From positions 6,180 to 70,179 of the forward strand of contig CBEWDL010000001.1 in assembly GCA_965555375.1 (NCBI GenBank): a stretch of DNA of 64,000 nt, given 5' to 3'. The translations under genes were made by a program, and so were the position numbers. Below, in pieces: positions 6,136-48,338 of this stretch. Position 1 is the first letter of the stretch. The number at the start of each line of letters is the position of its first letter. This DNA comes from an uncultured bacterium. GTDB taxonomy: Bacteria; Zixibacteria; MSB-5A5; UBA10806. The notes below the pieces were generated by a model that had not been told where the DNA came from, did no database searches, and saw only the letters and a list, made by a program, of their open reading frames with translations.

Positions 6136-7191
6136 ATGTATAAAATCGCGGTGATAGGGGGCGACGGTATCGGCCCCGAGGTAACTAAAGAAGCGTTGAA
6201 GGTGCTGAAAAAGGCCTCGGAGCTTTACGGATTCAGCTATGAGACAAAGGAATTTCCCTTCGGCTCGGAGCATTATCTAAAGACGGGCGAGTTGATGCCC
6301 GATTCGGTTTATTCGGAGTACAGAGATCACGATGCAATACTATTAGGCGCCATCGGCGATCCGCGTGTGGAGGTCGGCCTGGTGGAGCGGGCCGTTATCG
6401 CCGGCATCAGGTTCAATCTCGATCTATATGTAAACCTGCGGCCCATCAGGCTGTATGCGGAATCTTTATGTCCCATAAAAGATAAGAGATGCGAGGATGT
6501 CGATCTGGTGGTGGTGCGCGAGAATACCGAGGATGTCTATACCGGCATAGGCGGCATAATGAAGAAGGGGACTCCGGATGAGGTTGCCATAGCAAATATG
6601 GTCTTCACGCGTAAAGGATGCGAGCGTGCAGTGCGTTACGCCTTCGAGATTGCGAAAGCCCGTAATAAGGATAATAAGGTAACTCTTGTCGATAAGGCCA
6701 ACGCCATCCGCGCCCAGGATATATGGACCCGCACCGTGGAGGAGGTCGGCAGAGAATATCCCGATATAACTCACGATCATGCCTATATCGATGCCGCCTG
6801 CATGTGGATGGTGAAAAACCCGGAATGGTTCGACGTGGTCGTGACCACCAATATATTCGGCGATATCTTTACTGATCTGGGCGCCATGGTTCAGGGCGGC
6901 ATGGGGATCGCCGCCTCCGGGAATATCCATCCCGGGCAGGTCTCCATGTTCGAACCGATCCATGGATCGGCTCCGAAATACAAAGACAAAAACGTCGCCT
7001 GCCCCATAGCGGCTATCATGGCCGCTCAGATGATGCTCGACTTCCTCGGTGAGAAAAAGGCGGCTGCGGCTATCGAGGATGCGGTTACATCGCTCCTGCA
7101 ATCTGGCCGCATCAAATCCCTCGACGCCAGATCCGGGATATCGACATCAGAGATGGGCGATATGGTGGTGGTGGAATTAAAGGGAGAGTAG
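6136..7191 (+). CDS. leuB: 3-isopropylmalate dehydrogenase (isocitrate/isopropylmalate dehydrogenase family; homoisocitrate dehydrogenase not excluded)
   Basis: 351 aa. N-terminal [23 protein letters not shown] upstream. Context with leuC/leuD. Confidence 0.85.
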
Positions 7192-7240
7192 CATCGAATG
7201 TGGCATGCTTTTCCGCAGAATAAGCATGTTTAATTTCGCG

Positions 7241-7264
7241 CTGGCAGGAACCCTTTCCTGCCAG
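7241..7264. repeat. REP-like hairpin, inverted-orientation relative of the REP family near the RAYT gene
   Basis: CTGGCAGGAA-CCCT-TTCCTGCCAG, a 10-bp perfect stem. Core differs from the reverse complement of the REP core (GTCAGGAA-AGGG-TTCCTGAC) by a single stem base pair. Confidence 0.5.
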
Positions 7265-7323
7265 CATAAAGCGTCGGGAAGGGTCTACGACTCCTACGAG
7301 ATTCCCGACGGTGCCGTTAAAAA

Positions 7324-7887
7324 ATGAGCAGGATAAGATTAGAATTTTTCCTTCTGACTTCGTTTTTTATCATAACGCGTTTCTGGGACATAGCGGCAAC
7401 CTATTTCGTAACACCAAACCTGGAAAGGGAAACCAATCCTATAGTCTCGATATTCGGGCAGGGATGGATTGCGGTTATAATCATTCAGGCGCTACTGATG
7501 TCTGTGATAATCACTCTTAACTACTATAGCCTGTTTAAGATAGCAGCCAGCTATCCCTCACAGAGGGGCTGTTCATTTAAGGAATTTATAGCCTGTTATT
7601 ATTTTGGTGAAAAGCAGAACTTGATCAAAATGCTATATAGATTTCCTAAGAATAGAAATGTTTTAATAAGAGCGCTGGGCTATATTTTGCCAAGGGCCCT
7701 GATCGTGATCAGTATTTTCATATCCATGTCTTCGACTCTCTTAATTGTGAATGATGATTACCGTGAATTCTACGCTGTGGTAAAACCGTATTATTATATA
7801 GTTTTGATTGCGATTGTCTTTGTGTTCTGTATACTGTTTTTTAAAAGAGAATATGCACATTACCAGAAATCTCTTATGGATGAATAA
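7324..7887 (+). CDS. Low-GC hypothetical membrane protein (187 aa, about 4 TM segments)
   Basis: GC about 38%. Hydrophobic segments. No family recognised. Confidence 0.5.
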   Translation: MSRIRLEFFLLTSFFIITRFWDIAATYFVTPNLERETNPIVSIFGQGWIAVIIIQALLMSVIITLNYYSLFKIAASYPSQRGCSFKEFIACYYFGEKQNLIKMLYRFPKNRNVLIRALGYILPRALIVISIFISMSSTLLIVNDDYREFYAVVKPYYYIVLIAIVFVFCILFFKREYAHYQKSLMDE

Positions 7888-40036: not shown

Positions 40037-40831
40037 ATGATCTGGAAGGGCGTTTTATCGCTGATGATCGTTCTGACTATACCGGTCGCTGCCCAGTATA
40101 GCACCTCGGATGATTCCCTTTATGCCAATGTGATCGTGCCGCGCGCCGAACTACGCTGGACCATCGACACACCTACAGCCGGCATGCTTCCGCGAGGGAC
40201 TTTCAATTTTGACATGCGGACTTTTCCCACCGGCGGTGTTCAGTCTTCACTCGAAATAGGTCTGGCGGACCGATTTTCCGTGGGCCTCGGATACGGGGCG
40301 TCGAAGGTGCTGACCGATGTCGATCCCGACTGGAATCCAAAGCTTGAATTCCTGCTTAGATATCGTTTGCATGAGGAGGGCGAGGGTATTCCAGCCATAG
40401 CGGTTGGTTATAGTTCTCTCGGATATGGCGCCTACGACTCTGACAAGAACCGATATACGGTTAAATCGCCGGGGTTCTATGTTGCGTTTTCCAAGAACTT
40501 CAAGCTATACGAGAATCCCGCCTCGTTCCACTGGGGGGCAAACTACAGTTTCGAGAACGAAAAGGACAACGATCCCAACGTATTTATGGGGTTTCACGCC
40601 GATACCGGGCCTGGCATGGTCTTTCTGGCCGAATACGATTTCGCCATAAACGATAACAAGCGGGATGATATCTATGGGTTAGGAAGAGGCTTTTTCAATC
40701 TCGGTCTGGCCTGGTATATAACCGATGAGCTGTCGCTGGAGCTCGATCTGAAGAATCTCCTCAGAAACCGCGATGATGCCGAGGCTATCGATCGTGAGGT
40801 GAGGCTGGTTTATGTGGAGTACTTCTATTAA
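40037..40831 (+). CDS. Outer-membrane beta-barrel protein, hypothetical (signal peptide, C-terminal aromatic residue)
   Basis: Signal peptide MIWKGVLSLMIVLTIPVAAQ. Alternating amphipathic strands. Ends ...VEYFY. The ORF track's upstream extension lacks a signal peptide. Confidence 0.5.
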   Translation: MIWKGVLSLMIVLTIPVAAQYSTSDDSLYANVIVPRAELRWTIDTPTAGMLPRGTFNFDMRTFPTGGVQSSLEIGLADRFSVGLGYGASKVLTDVDPDWNPKLEFLLRYRLHEEGEGIPAIAVGYSSLGYGAYDSDKNRYTVKSPGFYVAFSKNFKLYENPASFHWGANYSFENEKDNDPNVFMGFHADTGPGMVFLAEYDFAINDNKRDDIYGLGRGFFNLGLAWYITDELSLELDLKNLLRNRDDAEAIDREVRLVYVEYFY

Positions 40832-40844
40832 TTCGGGAGCGGTT

Positions 40845-41333
40845 ATGAAAAGGATCGTAATTGCCGCCCTGATGGCGGTATTTTTTTCGGTGGTTTTTTC
40901 AGGATGTTATACCCAGCTAAAAGGCCCGGGGCCGGAGACGGGCGAGCGAATATATCGTGACTATACCTACTATGACGATTACTATTGGTACGGGGACTAT
41001 TATTACAGTCCCTATTACTACCGATCGGGATGGCTCAGTCCGTATTTCTATGGTTATCCGTACTATAGCTATGGATTTTTCTATTCTCCATGGTGGTATG
41101 ATCCCGGGTATTATTATGGCGATGGGGATCGTATTCGTTCGGATAAGTCAATAAGATATCGCCGCAAAGATACGGGCACGTCGCCGGGAGGTTTTACATC
41201 GCCGCCCCTGATACCGGGAGGAAGCGGCGGGACAGTCTCCCAGCCTGTTCGCACGAAAACATCCACGGCTGGCAGCGGGCAGGCTGACAAGCAGACCCGT
41301 TCAGCAGGTAAATCCACTCGACTCAGAAGATAG
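40845..41333 (+). CDS. Tyr/Gly aromatic-rich low-complexity lipoprotein (YxYGxY-type repeats) with Ser/Gly/Thr-rich basic tail
   Basis: Signal peptide plus lipobox (FSGC). About 30 Tyr in about 70 residues, e.g. YYWYGDYYYSPYYYRSGWLSPYFYGYPYYSYGFFYSPWWYDPGYYYG. Confidence 0.6.
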   Translation: MKRIVIAALMAVFFSVVFSGCYTQLKGPGPETGERIYRDYTYYDDYYWYGDYYYSPYYYRSGWLSPYFYGYPYYSYGFFYSPWWYDPGYYYGDGDRIRSDKSIRYRRKDTGTSPGGFTSPPLIPGGSGGTVSQPVRTKTSTAGSGQADKQTRSAGKSTRLRR

Positions 41334-44010: not shown

Positions 44011-45666
44011 ATGAACCTGAGTAATATAAAAGCCCCTCGCGGTAAAACCATCTCCTGCAAAAGCTGGCAGCAGGAGGGAGCTATGAGGATGCTTTTAAAC
44101 AACCTCGACTCGGAGGTTGCTGAAAGACCGGAGGAGCTGGTTGTTTACGGCGGTACGGGCAAGGCGGCCAGAAACAGGGAATGTCTGGAGGCGATTTTAG
44201 AATCGTTGAAATCTCTTGAGAACGACGAAACGCTTCTGGTTCAATCCGGCAAACCGGTTGGGATTTTCAAAACGCATGAGTATTCCCCCAGGGTTCTGAT
44301 AGCCAATTCGAACCTGGTTCCCAACTGGGCTACCTGGGAGGTCTTCAGAGAGCTTGATAAACTCGGGCTGATCATGTACGGCCAGATGACTGCGGGGTCG
44401 TGGATTTATATCGGGACGCAGGGGATACTGCAGGGAACATACGAGACTTTCGCCGCCGCTGGCCAGAAACATTTTAAAAGCGATCTGTCCGGCAAGTTCA
44501 TTTTAACCGGCGGCATGGGGGGTATGGGAGGTGCCCAGCCTCTGGCAGCGACCATGAACGGGGGAGCCATTCTGGTGGTGGAGGTCGATGAAGCTCGCAT
44601 TGACCGCAGGATAGCCACCGGCTATTGCGATAAAAAGACCACATCCCTGGATGAAGCATTGAAATGGATCGACGATGCCGTGAAATCCAGGTCGCCGCTG
44701 TCGGTGGGGTTGGTCGGCAATTGCGCCGATATCGTCCCGCAGCTGGTGAAAAGAGACGTGGTCCCGGATATCGTCACCGATCAGACATCGGCGCACGATG
44801 AGCTGAACGGCTATGTGCCGCACGGAATTCCGTATGAGGAAGTCTTAAAATTAAGAAAATCGAATCCCGATAAATATGTTAAGATGTCTTTCGATTCTAT
44901 GGCTGTTCACACGCAGGCGATTCTGGATCTGCAGAAGAAAGGTTCGATCTGTTTCGATTACGGCAACAATCTTCGCGGGCAGGCGCAGAAGGCCGGAGTC
45001 AAGAACGCCTTCGATTATCCGGGGTTCGTGCCGGCTTATATCCGTCCGCTGTTCTGCGAGGGCAAAGGGCCGTTCAGGTGGGCCGCTCTCTCCGGCGATC
45101 CGAACGATATCGCGGTGACCGACGCCGCTGTATTGCGTTTATTCCCTGAAAATGAACGTCTGACACGCTGGATAAAACTGGCCTCGGAAAAAGTCAGGTT
45201 CCAGGGGCTTCCGGCCCGGATATGCTGGTTGGGGTATGGCGAACGGGACAAGCTTGGATTGGAGTTCAATAAACTCGTTCGTGAGGGCAAGATCTCGGCG
45301 CCTATTGTGATCGGGCGGGATCATCTCGATTGCGGCTCGGTAGCCTCGCCCAACCGCGAGACGGAGGCCATGAAGGACGGCTCCGACGCTATCGCCGACT
45401 GGCCGCTACTGAATGCCATGCTTAATACGGCTTCGGGGGCGTCATGGGTATCGATTCATCATGGCGGCGGGGTCGGCATGGGCCTGGCAATCCACGCCGG
45501 ACAGGTGCTGGTCTGCGACGGCACAGAGGGGATGGATATCCGCATCGAGCGGGTTTTGACAAACGATCCCGGTGTCGGCATAGCTCGCCATGCAGACGCC
45601 GGCTATGAGGAGGCTATCAAAGTAGCCGACATAAAGGGCGTGAAGATACCGATGAGGGGGAAATAG
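44011..45666 (+). CDS. hutU: Urocanate hydratase
   Basis: 551 aa. [57 protein letters not shown]. Confidence 0.95.
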
Positions 45667-45677
45667 ACGGCTCCGGC

Positions 45678-45701
45678 CTGTCAGGAAAGGGTTCCTGACA
45701 G
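45678..45701. repeat. REP element (palindromic hairpin) downstream of hutU
   Basis: CTGTCAGGAA-AGGG-TTCCTGACAG followed by GCGCG. Confidence 0.6.
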
Positions 45702-45721
45702 CGCGAGTAATATCTAATGTC

Positions 45722-46030
45722 ATGAGCAGGACTGGAAAAAACCACTACCTGATAATATATCGTCCTCCGAGAGCGAGCTTTGCGGAGGATGCCACGCCGA
45801 AGGAGACCGCCGTAATCGAACGGCATTTCGAGTATCTGAAGAATAAGCTGGCAGACGGTTCCCTTATCATGGCCGGGCGAACCGAGAATAGGAGTTTCGG
45901 CATCGCCGTCATTCAAGCCGACAGCGAGGGGATGGCGAGAGAGATAATGGCCAACGACCCGGCGGTGAAGGAGGGGGTATTCACCGGCGAGCTTCTGCCC
46001 TTCAGGCTGGCGCTGGGGGGCGGGGAGTGA
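45722..46030 (+). CDS. YciI-like protein
   Basis: 102 aa. YLIIYRP...LIMAGRTEN...GIAVIQADSEGMAREIMANDP pattern of the YciI/Dabb fold. Confidence 0.6.
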   Translation: MSRTGKNHYLIIYRPPRASFAEDATPKETAVIERHFEYLKNKLADGSLIMAGRTENRSFGIAVIQADSEGMAREIMANDPAVKEGVFTGELLPFRLALGGGE

Positions 46031-46045
46031 CTGTAAGGCTAAGAA

Positions 46046-46092
46046 CCGTCAGGAAAGGCCTATGGTTCGTATGAGGTTCCTGACGGCGCGGG
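46046..46092. repeat. REP element, long-loop variant
   Basis: CCGTCAGGAA ... TTCCTGACGG with a 21-nt loop, followed by CGCGGG. Confidence 0.6.
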
Positions 46093-46124
46093 ACGGGAAA
46101 GTTCCGGTATGAGGATGTGAATGT

Positions 46125-46158
46125 GCCGTCAGGAAAGGATTCCTGACGGCGCGGGGGG
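46125..46158. repeat. REP element
   Basis: GCCGTCAGGAA-AGGA-TTCCTGACGGC followed by GCGGGGGG. Confidence 0.6.
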
Positions 46159-46216
46159 ATGATCAAGGATAATCCAGGCAAACCATGAGTCCAGGAGAAA
46201 GATAGACCAACGGGGC

Positions 46217-46242
46217 GGGGTCAGGAACCCCTTCCTGACCCC
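46217..46242. repeat. REP element, inverted orientation / variant
   Basis: GGGGTCAGGAA-CCCC-TTCCTGACCCC. The loop is the complement of the other copies. Confidence 0.55.
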
Positions 46243-46244
46243 TC

Positions 46245-46844
46245 ATGGGAAAAAGTATGAGAGGCAGAAAACGAAATAATTTTGAAAGACACGGCGATCT
46301 ATTCTTCGTCACTTCAACAGTTGTAGGATTTGCCAGAATCTTTGAATTGAAGTATATGTGCGATATAATGATTGAAAACCTGAATTATTATCAGAATAGG
46401 GGTGATTTCACCATCATCGCTTATGTCATAATGCCGGATCATTTTCATCTTATCATAAAAACCGACAAGGGCTTATCAATATCACAATGTATCGGAAATC
46501 TCAAGCGAATCACTTCAAGAAAGATAACTTCGGAATTAGAGAAACAAGGGAATAAAAAGCTATTATCATCCCTTAGCAAAAACGCCTTGTTGGAACCGTC
46601 GTCGGATAGCAGAGTATGGAAATATCGGTTTGACTCTTTCGTCATTACAAATGAGGATACCTTACGCCGGAAGATTCAATATATTCATAATAATCCGGTA
46701 ACGTCCGGCCTGGTTTCGGAACCGACGGAATGGCGATATACAAGCGCCCGAAATTATGCGGGGCTGGATGATGTCTTGATTCCGGTTGATGTCGAATGGA
46801 GATGTTTGGATTACGGCTTTGTGCCGTCAGGAAAGGGTTCCTGA
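46245..46844 (+). CDS. REP-associated tyrosine transposase (RAYT; IS200/IS605 TnpA-like HuH Y1 transposase)
   Basis: HuH motif IMPDHFHLII. Catalytic Tyr region KIQYIHNNPVTSGLV. 199 aa. The stop codon lies inside the downstream REP. Confidence 0.7.
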   Translation: MGKSMRGRKRNNFERHGDLFFVTSTVVGFARIFELKYMCDIMIENLNYYQNRGDFTIIAYVIMPDHFHLIIKTDKGLSISQCIGNLKRITSRKITSELEKQGNKKLLSSLSKNALLEPSSDSRVWKYRFDSFVITNEDTLRRKIQYIHNNPVTSGLVSEPTEWRYTSARNYAGLDDVLIPVDVEWRCLDYGFVPSGKGS

Positions 46845-46855
46845 CGGCGCGGGGG
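46823..46855. repeat. REP element overlapping the RAYT stop codon
   Basis: GCCGTCAGGAA-AGGG-TTCCTGACGGC followed by GCGGGGG. The TGA stop of the transposase is within the right arm. Confidence 0.6.
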
Positions 46856-46868
46856 AGTGCACAAATTG

Positions 46869-46893
46869 GCGGTTACGGCAAGCCGTGACTCGC
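46869..46893. repeat. Hairpin-2 element (second copy)
   Basis: GCGGTTACGGCAAGCCGTGACTCGC versus GCGGTCATGGCAAGCCATGACTCGC at 7977. Stem T-A to C-G compensatory change. Confidence 0.4.
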
Positions 46894-47069
46894 AGGCTAA
46901 GGGTCTTGGTCCTGAGGGGAATCTGGTGAATAAACCAGATAACGGGATTGCTGTAGTTCAGATAAAATATGACGAGAATGGTGATTTTTTGGAAAAGAGA
47001 TATTATGACGCTGATATGGTGCTTTCCGTAGTATCCTATGAAGATAGCAGTGATGCAAGGTAGGTCTAT

Positions 47070-48338
47070 ATGCAAACTCTCACAGCCTCTTTAATAATCA
47101 AGAACGCCTCGCAGCTGGTCACCATGCACGATCCGAAGAAAATCGGGCCGAAGGGTGGCAAGGATATGGGGCAGCTCAACATAATCAAGAACGGGGCGGT
47201 GGCGATCTACGGCTCGCGGATAGTAGCCGTGGGTGAAACAAAGAGCATACTCAAAAAGGTTAGAATTACCAGGAGAACGAAAATATTCGACGCCGAAAAG
47301 CGGGTGGTCACACCCGGCCTGATCGATCCGCACACGCATCCGGTCTTCGCCGGGCAGAGATCGGCGGAGTTCGAGATGCGGATCGCCGGGAAATCGTATA
47401 TGGAGATCGCCAAAGCCGGCGGCGGAATCAATTCGACAGTGAAATCGGTCAGGAAAGCATCGAAAAATAAACTCAAGGAAAACGGACGGAAGATTCTCGA
47501 TAAGATGCTCTCTTATGGAACCACTACAATCGAGGCCAAATCTGGCTACGGCCTGACCACCAGAGACGAGATTAAGCAATTGCAAGCGATAAAGGAGTTA
47601 AGCCAGGAGCATGAAGTGGATCTGGTCCCGACTTTTCTGGGAGCACATGAGATCCCTCCGGAGTATAAGAAGAATCCGGATGCCTATGTCAACCTGGTTT
47701 GCACGGAGATGATCCCGAAGGTGGTTTCGAAAAATCTGGCGGTTTTCTGCGATGTGTTCTGCGAAAGAGGCGTTTTCACCACCAAACAGACCAGGGTAAT
47801 TTTGCAAACTGCCCAGGCGTTCGGATTGAGGGCCAAGCTTCATGCCGATGAACTTCACAATACCGGCGGCGCGGAGTTGGCGGCGGAGTTCGGGGCGGCA
47901 TCGGCCGATCATCTCGTCTGCGTCAACGATGAGGGGATTCACCTGATGCAGAAAGCGGGGGTGGTGCCGGTTCTCCTGCCGGGCACAACTTTCTATCTGG
48001 GGCTGGACAAGGACGCGCCGGCCGGAAAGATGATCGATAAAGGGCTCCCCGTAGCCCTGGCGACAGACTGCAATCCGGGATCGTCGATGACCGAATCGAT
48101 GCAGATGATCATGACCCTGGCCTGTCTCAAATACGGGATGTCTCCGGCGGAAGTCCTGACGGCATCGACGTTGAATGCCGCCTATGCCATCGGCAAGGAG
48201 AGCGAAACGGGTTCCCTGGCGCCCGGTAAATGGGCCGATCTGGTTATATGGGACGCCGAGGATTATCGTGAGATTCCATATCATTTCGGCGGCAATATGG
48301 TCGATAGCGTATTCAAGCGAGGGGAGAAAGTCCGGTGA
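47070..48338 (+). CDS. hutI: Imidazolonepropionase
   Basis: 422 aa. IDPHTHPVFAG metal-binding motif. Amidohydrolase fold. Pairs with hutU. Confidence 0.9.
   Translation: MQTLTASLIIKNASQLVTMHDPKKIGPKGGKDMGQLNIIKNGAVAIYGSRIVAVGETKSILKKVRITRRTKIFDAEKRVVTPGLIDPHTHPVFAGQRSAEFEMRIAGKSYMEIAKAGGGINSTVKSVRKASKNKLKENGRKILDKMLSYGTTTIEAKSGYGLTTRDEIKQLQAIKELSQEHEVDLVPTFLGAHEIPPEYKKNPDAYVNLVCTEMIPKVVSKNLAVFCDVFCERGVFTTKQTRVILQTAQAFGLRAKLHADELHNTGGAELAAEFGAASADHLVCVNDEGIHLMQKAGVVPVLLPGTTFYLGLDKDAPAGKMIDKGLPVALATDCNPGSSMTESMQMIMTLACLKYGMSPAEVLTASTLNAAYAIGKESETGSLAPGKWADLVIWDAEDYREIPYHFGGNMVDSVFKRGEKVR

Follow-up and report, generated by a model that had tools for sequence, protein, structure and literature searches.

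The window analysed here is a stretch of 64,000 nucleotides (64 kb) of contig CBEWDL010000001.1, from an uncultured bacterium of the Zixibacteria (assembly GCA_965555375.1), and all coordinates are positions in this window. Between the histidine-utilisation genes hutU and hutI it carries a gene (46257..46844, + strand) for a 195-amino-acid (aa) protein that resembles the REP-associated tyrosine transposases (RAYT, also known as TnpA_REP), and around this gene lie five short palindromes that resemble repetitive extragenic palindromes (REPs). Upstream are hutU itself (urocanate hydratase; 44011..45666, + strand), recognised by TIGR01228 with 943 bits and by three Urocanase Pfam domains, and a gene for a YCII-domain protein (45722..46030, + strand; PF03795, 42 bits). 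Downstream lies hutI (imidazolonepropionase; 47070..48338, + strand; TIGR01224, 489 bits). These are the neighbours that an earlier note, made from the sequence of this DNA alone, had named as yciI, hutI and hutU, and the profile matches agree with it.

The gene, its product and the surrounding hairpins

Translation of the RAYT gene probably starts at the ATG at 46257 rather than at the alternative ATG at 46245, since the second ATG is where its homologs, which have 195 aa, begin. The protein scores 110.6 bits with NF047646 (REP_Tyr_transpos), the NCBI equivalog for RAYTs, whose cut-off is 80, and matches Pfam Y1_Tnp (PF01797) with 45.3 bits against a cut-off of 23, but it stays below the threshold of the IS200 equivalog NF033573 (transpos_IS200), with 33.2 bits against 55. 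The motifs from which the earlier note had recognised a HuH transposase, HFHLII and the tyrosine region YIHNNPV, are both present in the open reading frame (ORF) 46245/46257-46844, the first as MPDHFHLII, and the profiles and the fold both uphold the note's reading of the product as a HuH Y1 transposase. Residues H62, H64, W121, K139, Y142 and N146 (195-aa numbering) are invariant in 50 homologs, with H62/H64 forming the HuH motif and Tyr142 being the catalytic tyrosine. The window protein, with DHFH and WK, departs from the consensus of these homologs, which contains NHFH, WQ and YIHNNP and has an SS motif behind the tyrosine. An AlphaFold model built with the 50 homologs has a mean pLDDT (predicted local distance difference test) of 89.7, with low confidence in the last ~20 residues, and its top structural match is 4ER8, the REP-bound TnpA_REP of E. 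coli (E 3.8e-9, 172 aligned columns). This entry is also the sole match in a sequence search of the Protein Data Bank (PDB), and the transposases of ISDra2, IS608 and IS200 (IS200/IS605 TnpA) follow behind it at structural ranks 2-30.

The palindromes were searched for as GTCAGGAA-N(2-30)-TTCCTGAC throughout the window, with 100 dinucleotide-preserving shuffles as the control. This pattern matches exactly five times, at 45680, 46048, 46128, 46220 and 46826, and in none of the shuffles; these are the five palindromes reported earlier. All five fold as hairpins on single-stranded DNA (-10.9 to -13.6 kcal/mol, z -4 to -7) and all five, that is, four copies with short loops and the long-loop REP2, bear a GCG tag. 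REP1 (45678..45704, - strand) consists of the GCG tag, the stem CTGTCAGGAA, a CCCT loop and the returning stem (-10.9 kcal/mol, z -4.1); the second pair from the foot of its stem is T-A in place of C-G. REP2 (46046..46089, - strand; -11.0 kcal/mol, z -4.05) has a 10-bp stem, a loop of 21 nt and a CGC tail, and REP3 (46125..46152, - strand; -13.6 kcal/mol, z -7.0) is a standard copy oriented like REP5. REP4 (46215..46242, + strand) has its GCG tag on the + strand, the stem GGGTCAGGAA and a CCCC loop that is inverted, and complementary to those of the other copies. REP5 (46823..46850, - strand) has its tag on the - strand. The earlier note had described one REP behind hutU, three upstream of the transposase (long-loop, standard and inverted) and a fifth overlapping its stop codon, and this description is accurate for every copy: the stem of REP1 begins at 45678, 12 nt beyond the hutU stop codon (45664-45666), REP2, REP3 and REP4 are the three upstream forms, and the right arm TTCCTGAC of REP5 contains the TGA at 46842-46844. 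The GC-rich tail that it saw behind most copies is likewise real; the conserved portion of this tail is CGC, the complement of the 5'-GCG tag on the opposite strand.

The two copies next to the gene form an inverted pair. REP4, as the left bracket, and REP5, as the right one, point their tags outward and enclose a cassette of 632 bp (~630 bp), in which the stem of REP4 begins 40 nt upstream of the ATG at 46257 and REP5 begins at +566. In nine other loci, from Zixibacteria and one Ignavibacteriales genome and with RAYTs of 47-88% identity, the left inverted REP lies 32-44 nt before the RAYT start, and in eight full-length homologous loci the right REP begins +566 to +569 from the start codon. 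Bracketing as in the window is found in L121, L205, L123, L009 (Ignavibacteriales), L124, L026 and L108, whose RAYTs are 88%, 74%, 67%, 54%, 51%, 49% and 47% identical to that of the window, respectively. In L063, a partial RAYT (48%) in a locus that is cut off, the left REP alone is visible, and in L204 the right REP has one stem mismatch and lies ~22 nt past the RAYT stop. Inverted REPs are known to flank RAYT genes, often right at the stop codon, and flanking by at least two inverted REPs has been used as a criterion for RAYTs (PMC2817692); REP4 and REP5 flank the window gene in this manner, and the overlap of REP and stop codon is an extreme of the known tendency. The classic REP/RAYT arrangement that the earlier note had recognised is therefore present as an inverted and conserved bracket of the gene, but the five REPs are not equivalent, as REP1-3 are all oriented like REP5 and lie outside this bracket. 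They are additional copies accumulated beside the RAYT gene.

REP5 supplies the last six codons of the RAYT gene (PSGKGS) as well as the TGA at 46842-46844. In the related loci of this geometry, too, these codons and the stop come from the right REP. A C-terminal PSG(K/R/M)(G/D)S is kept in homologs down to 55% identity, and its variable residues match the variable bases of the REP loop, so that the tail seems to be imposed by the DNA hairpin and not to result from selection on the protein, which fits the low confidence of the model there. A sister group of homologs of 186 aa lacks a tail of this type (L204 being the single such locus inspected), and the tail is therefore probably dispensable. 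In E. coli TnpA_REP the extreme C-terminal residues are regulatory and contact the GTAG tag of the REP; that the REP-encoded tail could matter in the same way is a speculative idea drawn from this analogy, and the existence of 186-aa relatives with no tail speaks against its being required.

With a probability of about 0.85, ORF 46257-46844 is a RAYT (TnpA_REP), a single-domain HuH/Y1 protein of the IS200/IS605 superfamily, with the surrounding palindromes as its cognate REPs. The REP/RAYT system at the hut locus is genuine, a clear yet ordinary example of a known system.

Several other assignments of the hairpins were considered and rejected. Membership in a known RNA family is contradicted by Rfam, which gives no match at gathering threshold anywhere in the 64-kb window. 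Intrinsic terminators do not fit, as no T-run follows 3' of the hairpins and the terminator scanner made no call. A decayed inverted REP that might be seen by eye 3' of REP5 (~46880-46920) resembles the L123 copy too weakly. Read-through of the REPs in other frames extends or creates spurious ORFs, and the peptides RRQEPFPDG and AVRNPFLTE (P0027 N-terminus; - strand ORF 46002-46181) are such REP translations.

A scan of metagenomes with the RAYT alignment returned, among the matches listed, mostly relatives of ~30% identity, and only L124 and L157 as close ones. Five loci with RAYT relatives of this ~30% class from soil and peat metagenomes (L127, L128, L129, L131 and L134) have a different hairpin, with a CGCAGAGC stem, an outer CTGG/CCAG and tags pointing outward. 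For L127 and L134, the RAYT-relative gene and the right hairpin touch or overlap at the end of that gene.

Anatomy and dispersal of the REP

The earlier note had named palindromes confined to this locus as something that would refute its reading, and they are not so confined. A sixth and a seventh member of the family, which it missed, form a doublet at 7238..7310, 38 kb from the RAYT gene and between the ORFs 6136-7191 and 7324-7887, and the same core is found in at least 120 stretches of other genomes. The left copy of the doublet reads GCG-CTGGCAGGAA-CCCT-TTCCTGCCAG and has a compensatory change, T>G / A>C (GGCAGGAA/TTCCTGCC), in its two arms (-13.6 kcal/mol, z -6.5). The right copy (7272-7310) reads CGTCGGGAA-(21 nt)-TTCCCGACG, and by manual count its loop has 13 of 21 bases in common with that of REP2. 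This subtype with a 21-nt loop is found at only these two distant sites of the window and nowhere else among the compared sequences. A scan of the window that was free of any stem sequence (GCG, a perfect 10-bp stem and a pyrimidine-rich 4-nt loop) recovers only the left copy of the doublet and the four short-loop REPs, for which our own arithmetic gives a chance expectation of ~6e-4 matches.

The scan of other genomes, with one genome per species, used the pattern CGTCAGGAA-N4-TTCCTGACG and yielded at least 120 stretches, mostly from metagenome-assembled genomes (MAGs) of Zixibacteria and Ignavibacteria and from many species; REP counts per genome are lower bounds. The anatomy of the REP was derived from 129 distinct copies in these genomes, oriented via their loop composition. 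A 5' GCG tag (90/78/91%) is followed by a 10-bp stem, N-C-GTCAGGAA, and by a YCCY loop, and the element is asymmetric with respect to strand, as its 3' flank has neither conservation nor a T-run. The outermost stem pair covaries (C-G 82, G-C 22, T-A 12, A-T 2) and is paired in 118/129 copies, indicating that structure, and not sequence alone, is maintained.

By crude ORF calling on the same stretches, 109/139 REP copies (78%) are intergenic, with 24 between convergent genes versus 9 between divergent ones. Most copies are found downstream of genes, and the median distance to the nearest stop is 62 nt. A RAYT homolog is present in only ~10 of the at least 120 stretches, and ~110 have no RAYT nearby; in the Zixibacteria MAG JAJRZO01, for example, just one (L026) of at least 13 REP-bearing contigs has a RAYT nearby. 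Under a relaxed scan, doublets with tags outward and a spacing of 28-65 nt make up 22/38 of adjacent REP pairs. Such doublets are often heterodimers, in which a GTCAGGAA stem stands 28-65 nt from a compensated variant (GGCAGGAA, GTCGGGAA or GTAAGGAA), and in this they resemble REPINs (REP doublets forming hairpins).

Heterodimers were seen in L060, L005, L014, L016, L001, L023, L068, L089, L094, L098, L006 and L043. In an Ignavibacteria MAG (L107, 26-300), three tandem REPs with 125-126 nt spacing and near-identical flanks look like a small array that recalls clusters of BIMEs (interspersed mosaic elements of bacteria). Beside its GCG-tagged REPs, L204 also has (at 1963-1985) a GTAG-tagged hairpin, GTAG-GTCAGGAGG-CCTGT-CCTCCTGAC, which may represent another type of REP or have arisen by chance.

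Mechanism, gene history and competing explanations

The mechanism proposed here starts from what the data directly support, namely the RAYT family, the fold, the catalytic residues, the strand-specific tagged hairpin, the inverted bracket, the dispersal and the vertical inheritance, and its steps are modelled on the systems of E. coli, Stenotrophomonas and Marinomonas (PMC3479197, PMC8266576). By this analogy, the RAYT would bind a REP that has folded into a hairpin in single-stranded DNA, read the tag at the stem's foot and use Tyr142 to cut nearby, while the metal is held by the HuH histidines. Rejoining of the strands by the RAYT would then allow REPs and REP doublets to spread or rearrange in intergenic DNA. 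Single-stranded REPs have been shown to be processed in vitro by TnpA_REP (PMC8266576, PMC3479197).

Several observations weigh against the identification of a RAYT with cognate REPs. The DNA-cutting activity of the window protein is presumed from its characterised relatives. Beyond the RAYT locus, 62.8 kb of the window contain one further REP site, suggesting that the abundance of REPs in the source genome may be low, roughly tens rather than hundreds; this genome is sampled by the single 64-kb window, and the counts of its REPs and RAYTs cover that window only. Most loci in other genomes were picked up via the REP pattern, a bias toward a constant REP core, although the same core is present in five loci that were found via the protein (L121, L123, L124, L204 and L205). 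Finally, the canonical GT[AG]G tag does not occur at the foot of the REP, where the unpaired element of the 129 copies is GCG. The GT[AG]G tag is typical of RAYT subclasses 2.2, 2.4, 2.5, 2.7 and 2.8 but is not demanded of subclass 2.6 or class 3 (PMC6006769), and its absence therefore does not exclude membership in the RAYT family.

The history of the gene can be followed through its neighbours. The RAYT gene directly follows hutU in four relatives (L121, L205, L206/L207 and L123), and the flanking genes common to the window and these relatives include DUF4416, Fer4-like, hutI and LptE genes, among others. Synonymous divergence (dS) from the window is 0.30 for the RAYT gene of L121, compared to 0.52 for hutI and 0.81 for hutU; it is 1.3 in L205, compared to 1.7 for hutU; and it is saturated in L123, where that of hutI is 1.3. 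The ratio of nonsynonymous to synonymous substitution rates (dN/dS) is 0.07-0.19 for the RAYT gene and ~0.07 for the hut genes, indicating that the RAYT gene diverged together with its neighbours and under purifying selection. Single-copy vertical inheritance with purifying selection is the pattern of domesticated RAYTs (PMC5581495). The gene is a long-term resident at the hutU-hutI junction, is inherited vertically and does not appear to move, and it is in this sense of the domesticated type. The earlier note had the RAYT splitting the hut genes; it does lie between hutU and hutI, but not as a recent insertion, as it occupies the same site in relatives so diverged that synonymous sites approach or exceed saturation.

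The RAYT has stayed in place as the gene content beside it changed. L123, the most distant of the syntenic relatives, has the YCII gene in common with the window, whereas the closer L121, L205 and L206 lack it, and in these three the left REP almost directly follows hutU. In L123 a gene of 400 aa stands between the RAYT gene and hutI, and the C-terminal end of its product is matched by a window ORF of 68 codons (46857..47063, + strand; tblastn 50% over 52 aa to L123 2886-3041). To judge from this match, the ORF is a probable deletion remnant, the 3' end, of the 400-aa gene; it has no match in Pfam or in L121, where the gap between the RAYT gene and hutI is 96 nt. The GC content of the RAYT gene is 0.40, compared to 0.54-0.58 in the neighbouring genes, and its GC content at third codon positions (GC3) is 0.43, compared to 0.66-0.72. 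The comparison covered the RAYT genes of L121, L205, L123 and L204, and the gap in GC is equally large in relatives with saturated synonymous sites, indicating that the GC content of the gene has not ameliorated.

It is improbable that the 632-bp REP-tnpA-REP unit is an autonomous insertion sequence (IS) of the IS200/IS605 type, with the hairpins as its ends, which inserted itself into the hut operon. Like IS200, the unit is compact and hairpin-bounded, and its protein matches Pfam Y1_Tnp, but this protein reaches only 33 bits of the 55 that the IS200 equivalog demands while passing the RAYT equivalog, and both ends of the unit are the identical hairpin in inverted orientation, not the distinct left-end and right-end (LE/RE) hairpins on one strand. 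The GC content of 0.40, far under that of the neighbours, does hint at a foreign origin, and some horizontal transfer is suggested by the presence of related RAYTs with the same REP in two phyla, with a Zixibacteria RAYT copy (47-49%) being more distant from the window RAYT than the Ignavibacteriales copy (54%). Nevertheless, the same chromosomal site is occupied in the four relatives, at a dS that reaches saturation and is comparable to that of the neighbouring genes; REP stretches without the gene are ~10x as numerous as those with it; and a second copy is not seen in any locus. An IS200-type insertion sequence is rejected on the profile score, the structure of the ends and synteny.

Slightly less probable still is the notion that the palindromes are mainly regulatory hairpins of the host, acting in the hut operon as mRNA stabilisers, attenuators or protein-binding sites, with the link to the RAYT being incidental or the gene being a decaying relic. 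The genes from hutU to hutI are indeed all on one strand with the hairpins in the intercistronic gaps, REPs elsewhere stabilise upstream mRNA and bind host proteins (background in PMC3733652), and in relatives most copies are found downstream of genes. Yet the same hairpin is found in both orientations in unrelated intergenic regions of many genomes, its spacing from the start and the stop of the RAYT is fixed in homologs with 47-88% identity, and the RAYT gene is intact and under purifying selection. A strand-specific GCG tag, moreover, makes sense for recognition of single-stranded DNA, and the hairpins are followed by no T-run and gave no terminator-like call. A host role that the hairpins acquired secondarily is compatible with their being the REPs of the RAYT.

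Least probable of the three is that the RAYT is kept for a host function other than the spread of REPs, such as the processing of single-stranded DNA at the replication fork, with the REPs being static fossils: its fixed position, purifying selection and long residence, the low REP density in the window and a literature that regards the selective reason for RAYT retention as open (PMC5581495, PMC6006769) would all suit such a role, but REP content differs among close relatives, with REP1-3 present in the window and absent from L121 (88% identical RAYT), and the 21-nt-loop subfamily, at two distant sites of the window and in no other compared sequence, points to turnover within the lineage.

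Relation to described systems and possible novelty

Read as a RAYT with its REPs, the locus is closest to the E. coli TnpA_REP/RAYT (YafM; 4ER8; Bertels group 2, Quentin subclass 2.2), which is the closest characterised enzyme and the best match in both sequence and fold. The E. coli REPtron and the window have in common the Y1 fold with HuH and tyrosine, the inverted REP flanks and the intergenic dispersal of REPs, and the vertical inheritance of the window RAYT is consistent with the single-copy habit of RAYTs. The differences are nevertheless considerable. The two proteins are 21% identical over the structural alignment, and the window RAYT has 195 aa versus 165 aa, part of which is probably due to a longer helical segment between the HuH motif and the tyrosine in the model. 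GCG is the tag of the window REP, whose 10-bp palindrome is perfect, whereas the E. coli REP has a bulged stem and the GTAG tag that TnpA_REP requires. Unlike in the E. coli REPtron, the stop codon of the window gene comes from the right REP, which extends into the coding sequence.

Two of the subclasses defined by Quentin et al. 2018 (PMC6006769) are found in hosts of the FCB group (Fibrobacteres, Chlorobi and Bacteroidetes), as is the window family: subclass 2.6 (Bertels group 5), mostly in Bacteroidetes, and subclass 2.4 (group 4), in Cyanobacteria, Bacteroidetes and Chlorobia. Their motifs are NH[LIV]H, WQ, YIH[QN]NP and SS for 2.6, and NH[IFV]H, WQ and YIxNNP with a mean length of 194 aa for 2.4 (PMC6006769). 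In a comparison by motifs only, the family consensus NHFH/WQ/YIHNNP/SS partly fits both. As in subclass 2.6, the flanking hairpins of the window are without a GT[AG]G tag, but they have strong and perfect stems whereas those of 2.6 were described as "weaker" and atypical. As in subclass 2.4, a REP lies within the reading frame without breaking it, but in 2.4 it lies between the HuH and tyrosine motifs and in the window at the extreme 3' end.

The IS200/IS605 TnpA proteins (IS608, ISDra2 and IS200) have the same catalytic fold and read hairpins on single-stranded DNA, as the window RAYT would by analogy. Unlike them, it is under the cut-off of the IS200 equivalog, has identical inverted hairpins and occupies a fixed chromosomal site. 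The superfamily of CGTC-tagged REPs (Di Nocera et al. 2013, PMC3733652), which occurs in Chlorobi, Bacteroidetes and others and was said to be without a dedicated transposase, has an unpaired CGTC tag, a stem of 8-9 bp starting with A/T pairs and a CCA tail (PMC3733652). The window REP is similar in that its stem opens C-GTC, with CGTC at the foot of the hairpin, in its 4-nt loop, in its doublets and in its presence in neighbouring phyla. However, its CGTC is paired with GACG, its stem does not start with A/T, it has no CCA tail and its unpaired element is GCG. Membership in the CGTC superfamily was rejected on the pairing of the CGTC, the absence of the CCA tail and the GCG tag.

It is conceivable, if on balance doubtful, that the family represents a distinct REP/RAYT lineage of the FCB group (Zixibacteria and Ignavibacteria), defined by a GCG-tagged perfect 10-bp REP, a rigid ~630-bp cassette whose right REP supplies the stop codon in frame, and REPIN-like heterodimers of GTCAGGAA with GGCAGGAA/GTCGGGAA/GTAAGGAA. 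The features that stand out are the GCG tag, the REP-supplied stop in a rigid cassette, the constant REP core across two phyla and the persistently low GC content of the RAYT. If the overlap of REP and gene is functional, it could couple translation of the RAYT, stability of its mRNA or binding of the RAYT in cis to its own REP, and such autoregulation would be without a described counterpart in the proteobacterial systems. Given the reported co-evolution of RAYTs and REPs, it would also be unusual for the REP core to remain the same while the RAYTs diverge to 47% identity across two phyla. The current picture of RAYTs and REPs is unchanged by this locus. Work on RAYTs and REPs has been almost exclusively on Proteobacteria, and the locus is a compact and clean example from a little-studied, uncultivated lineage. 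Its chromosomal anchor between hutU and hutI eases the tracing of RAYT orthology, and the geometry from gene to REP is kept over deep divergence. It could thus serve as a comparative case for how Y1 enzymes read hairpins and for how long RAYTs persist by vertical inheritance.

Two minor observations concern the remainder of the window. The earlier note had proposed checking whether hutH and hutG lie further downstream. The MIO (4-methylideneimidazole-5-one) signature of histidine ammonia-lyase (ASGD) is absent from every frame of the 64-kb window, suggesting that hutH does not lie close by; no search was aimed at hutG. The product of ORF 40812-41333 has an N-terminus resembling a signal peptide and, behind it, an extremely tyrosine-rich stretch (YYDDYYWYGDYYYSPYYYRSGW...); the ORF adjoins a gene for an outer-membrane-like protein.

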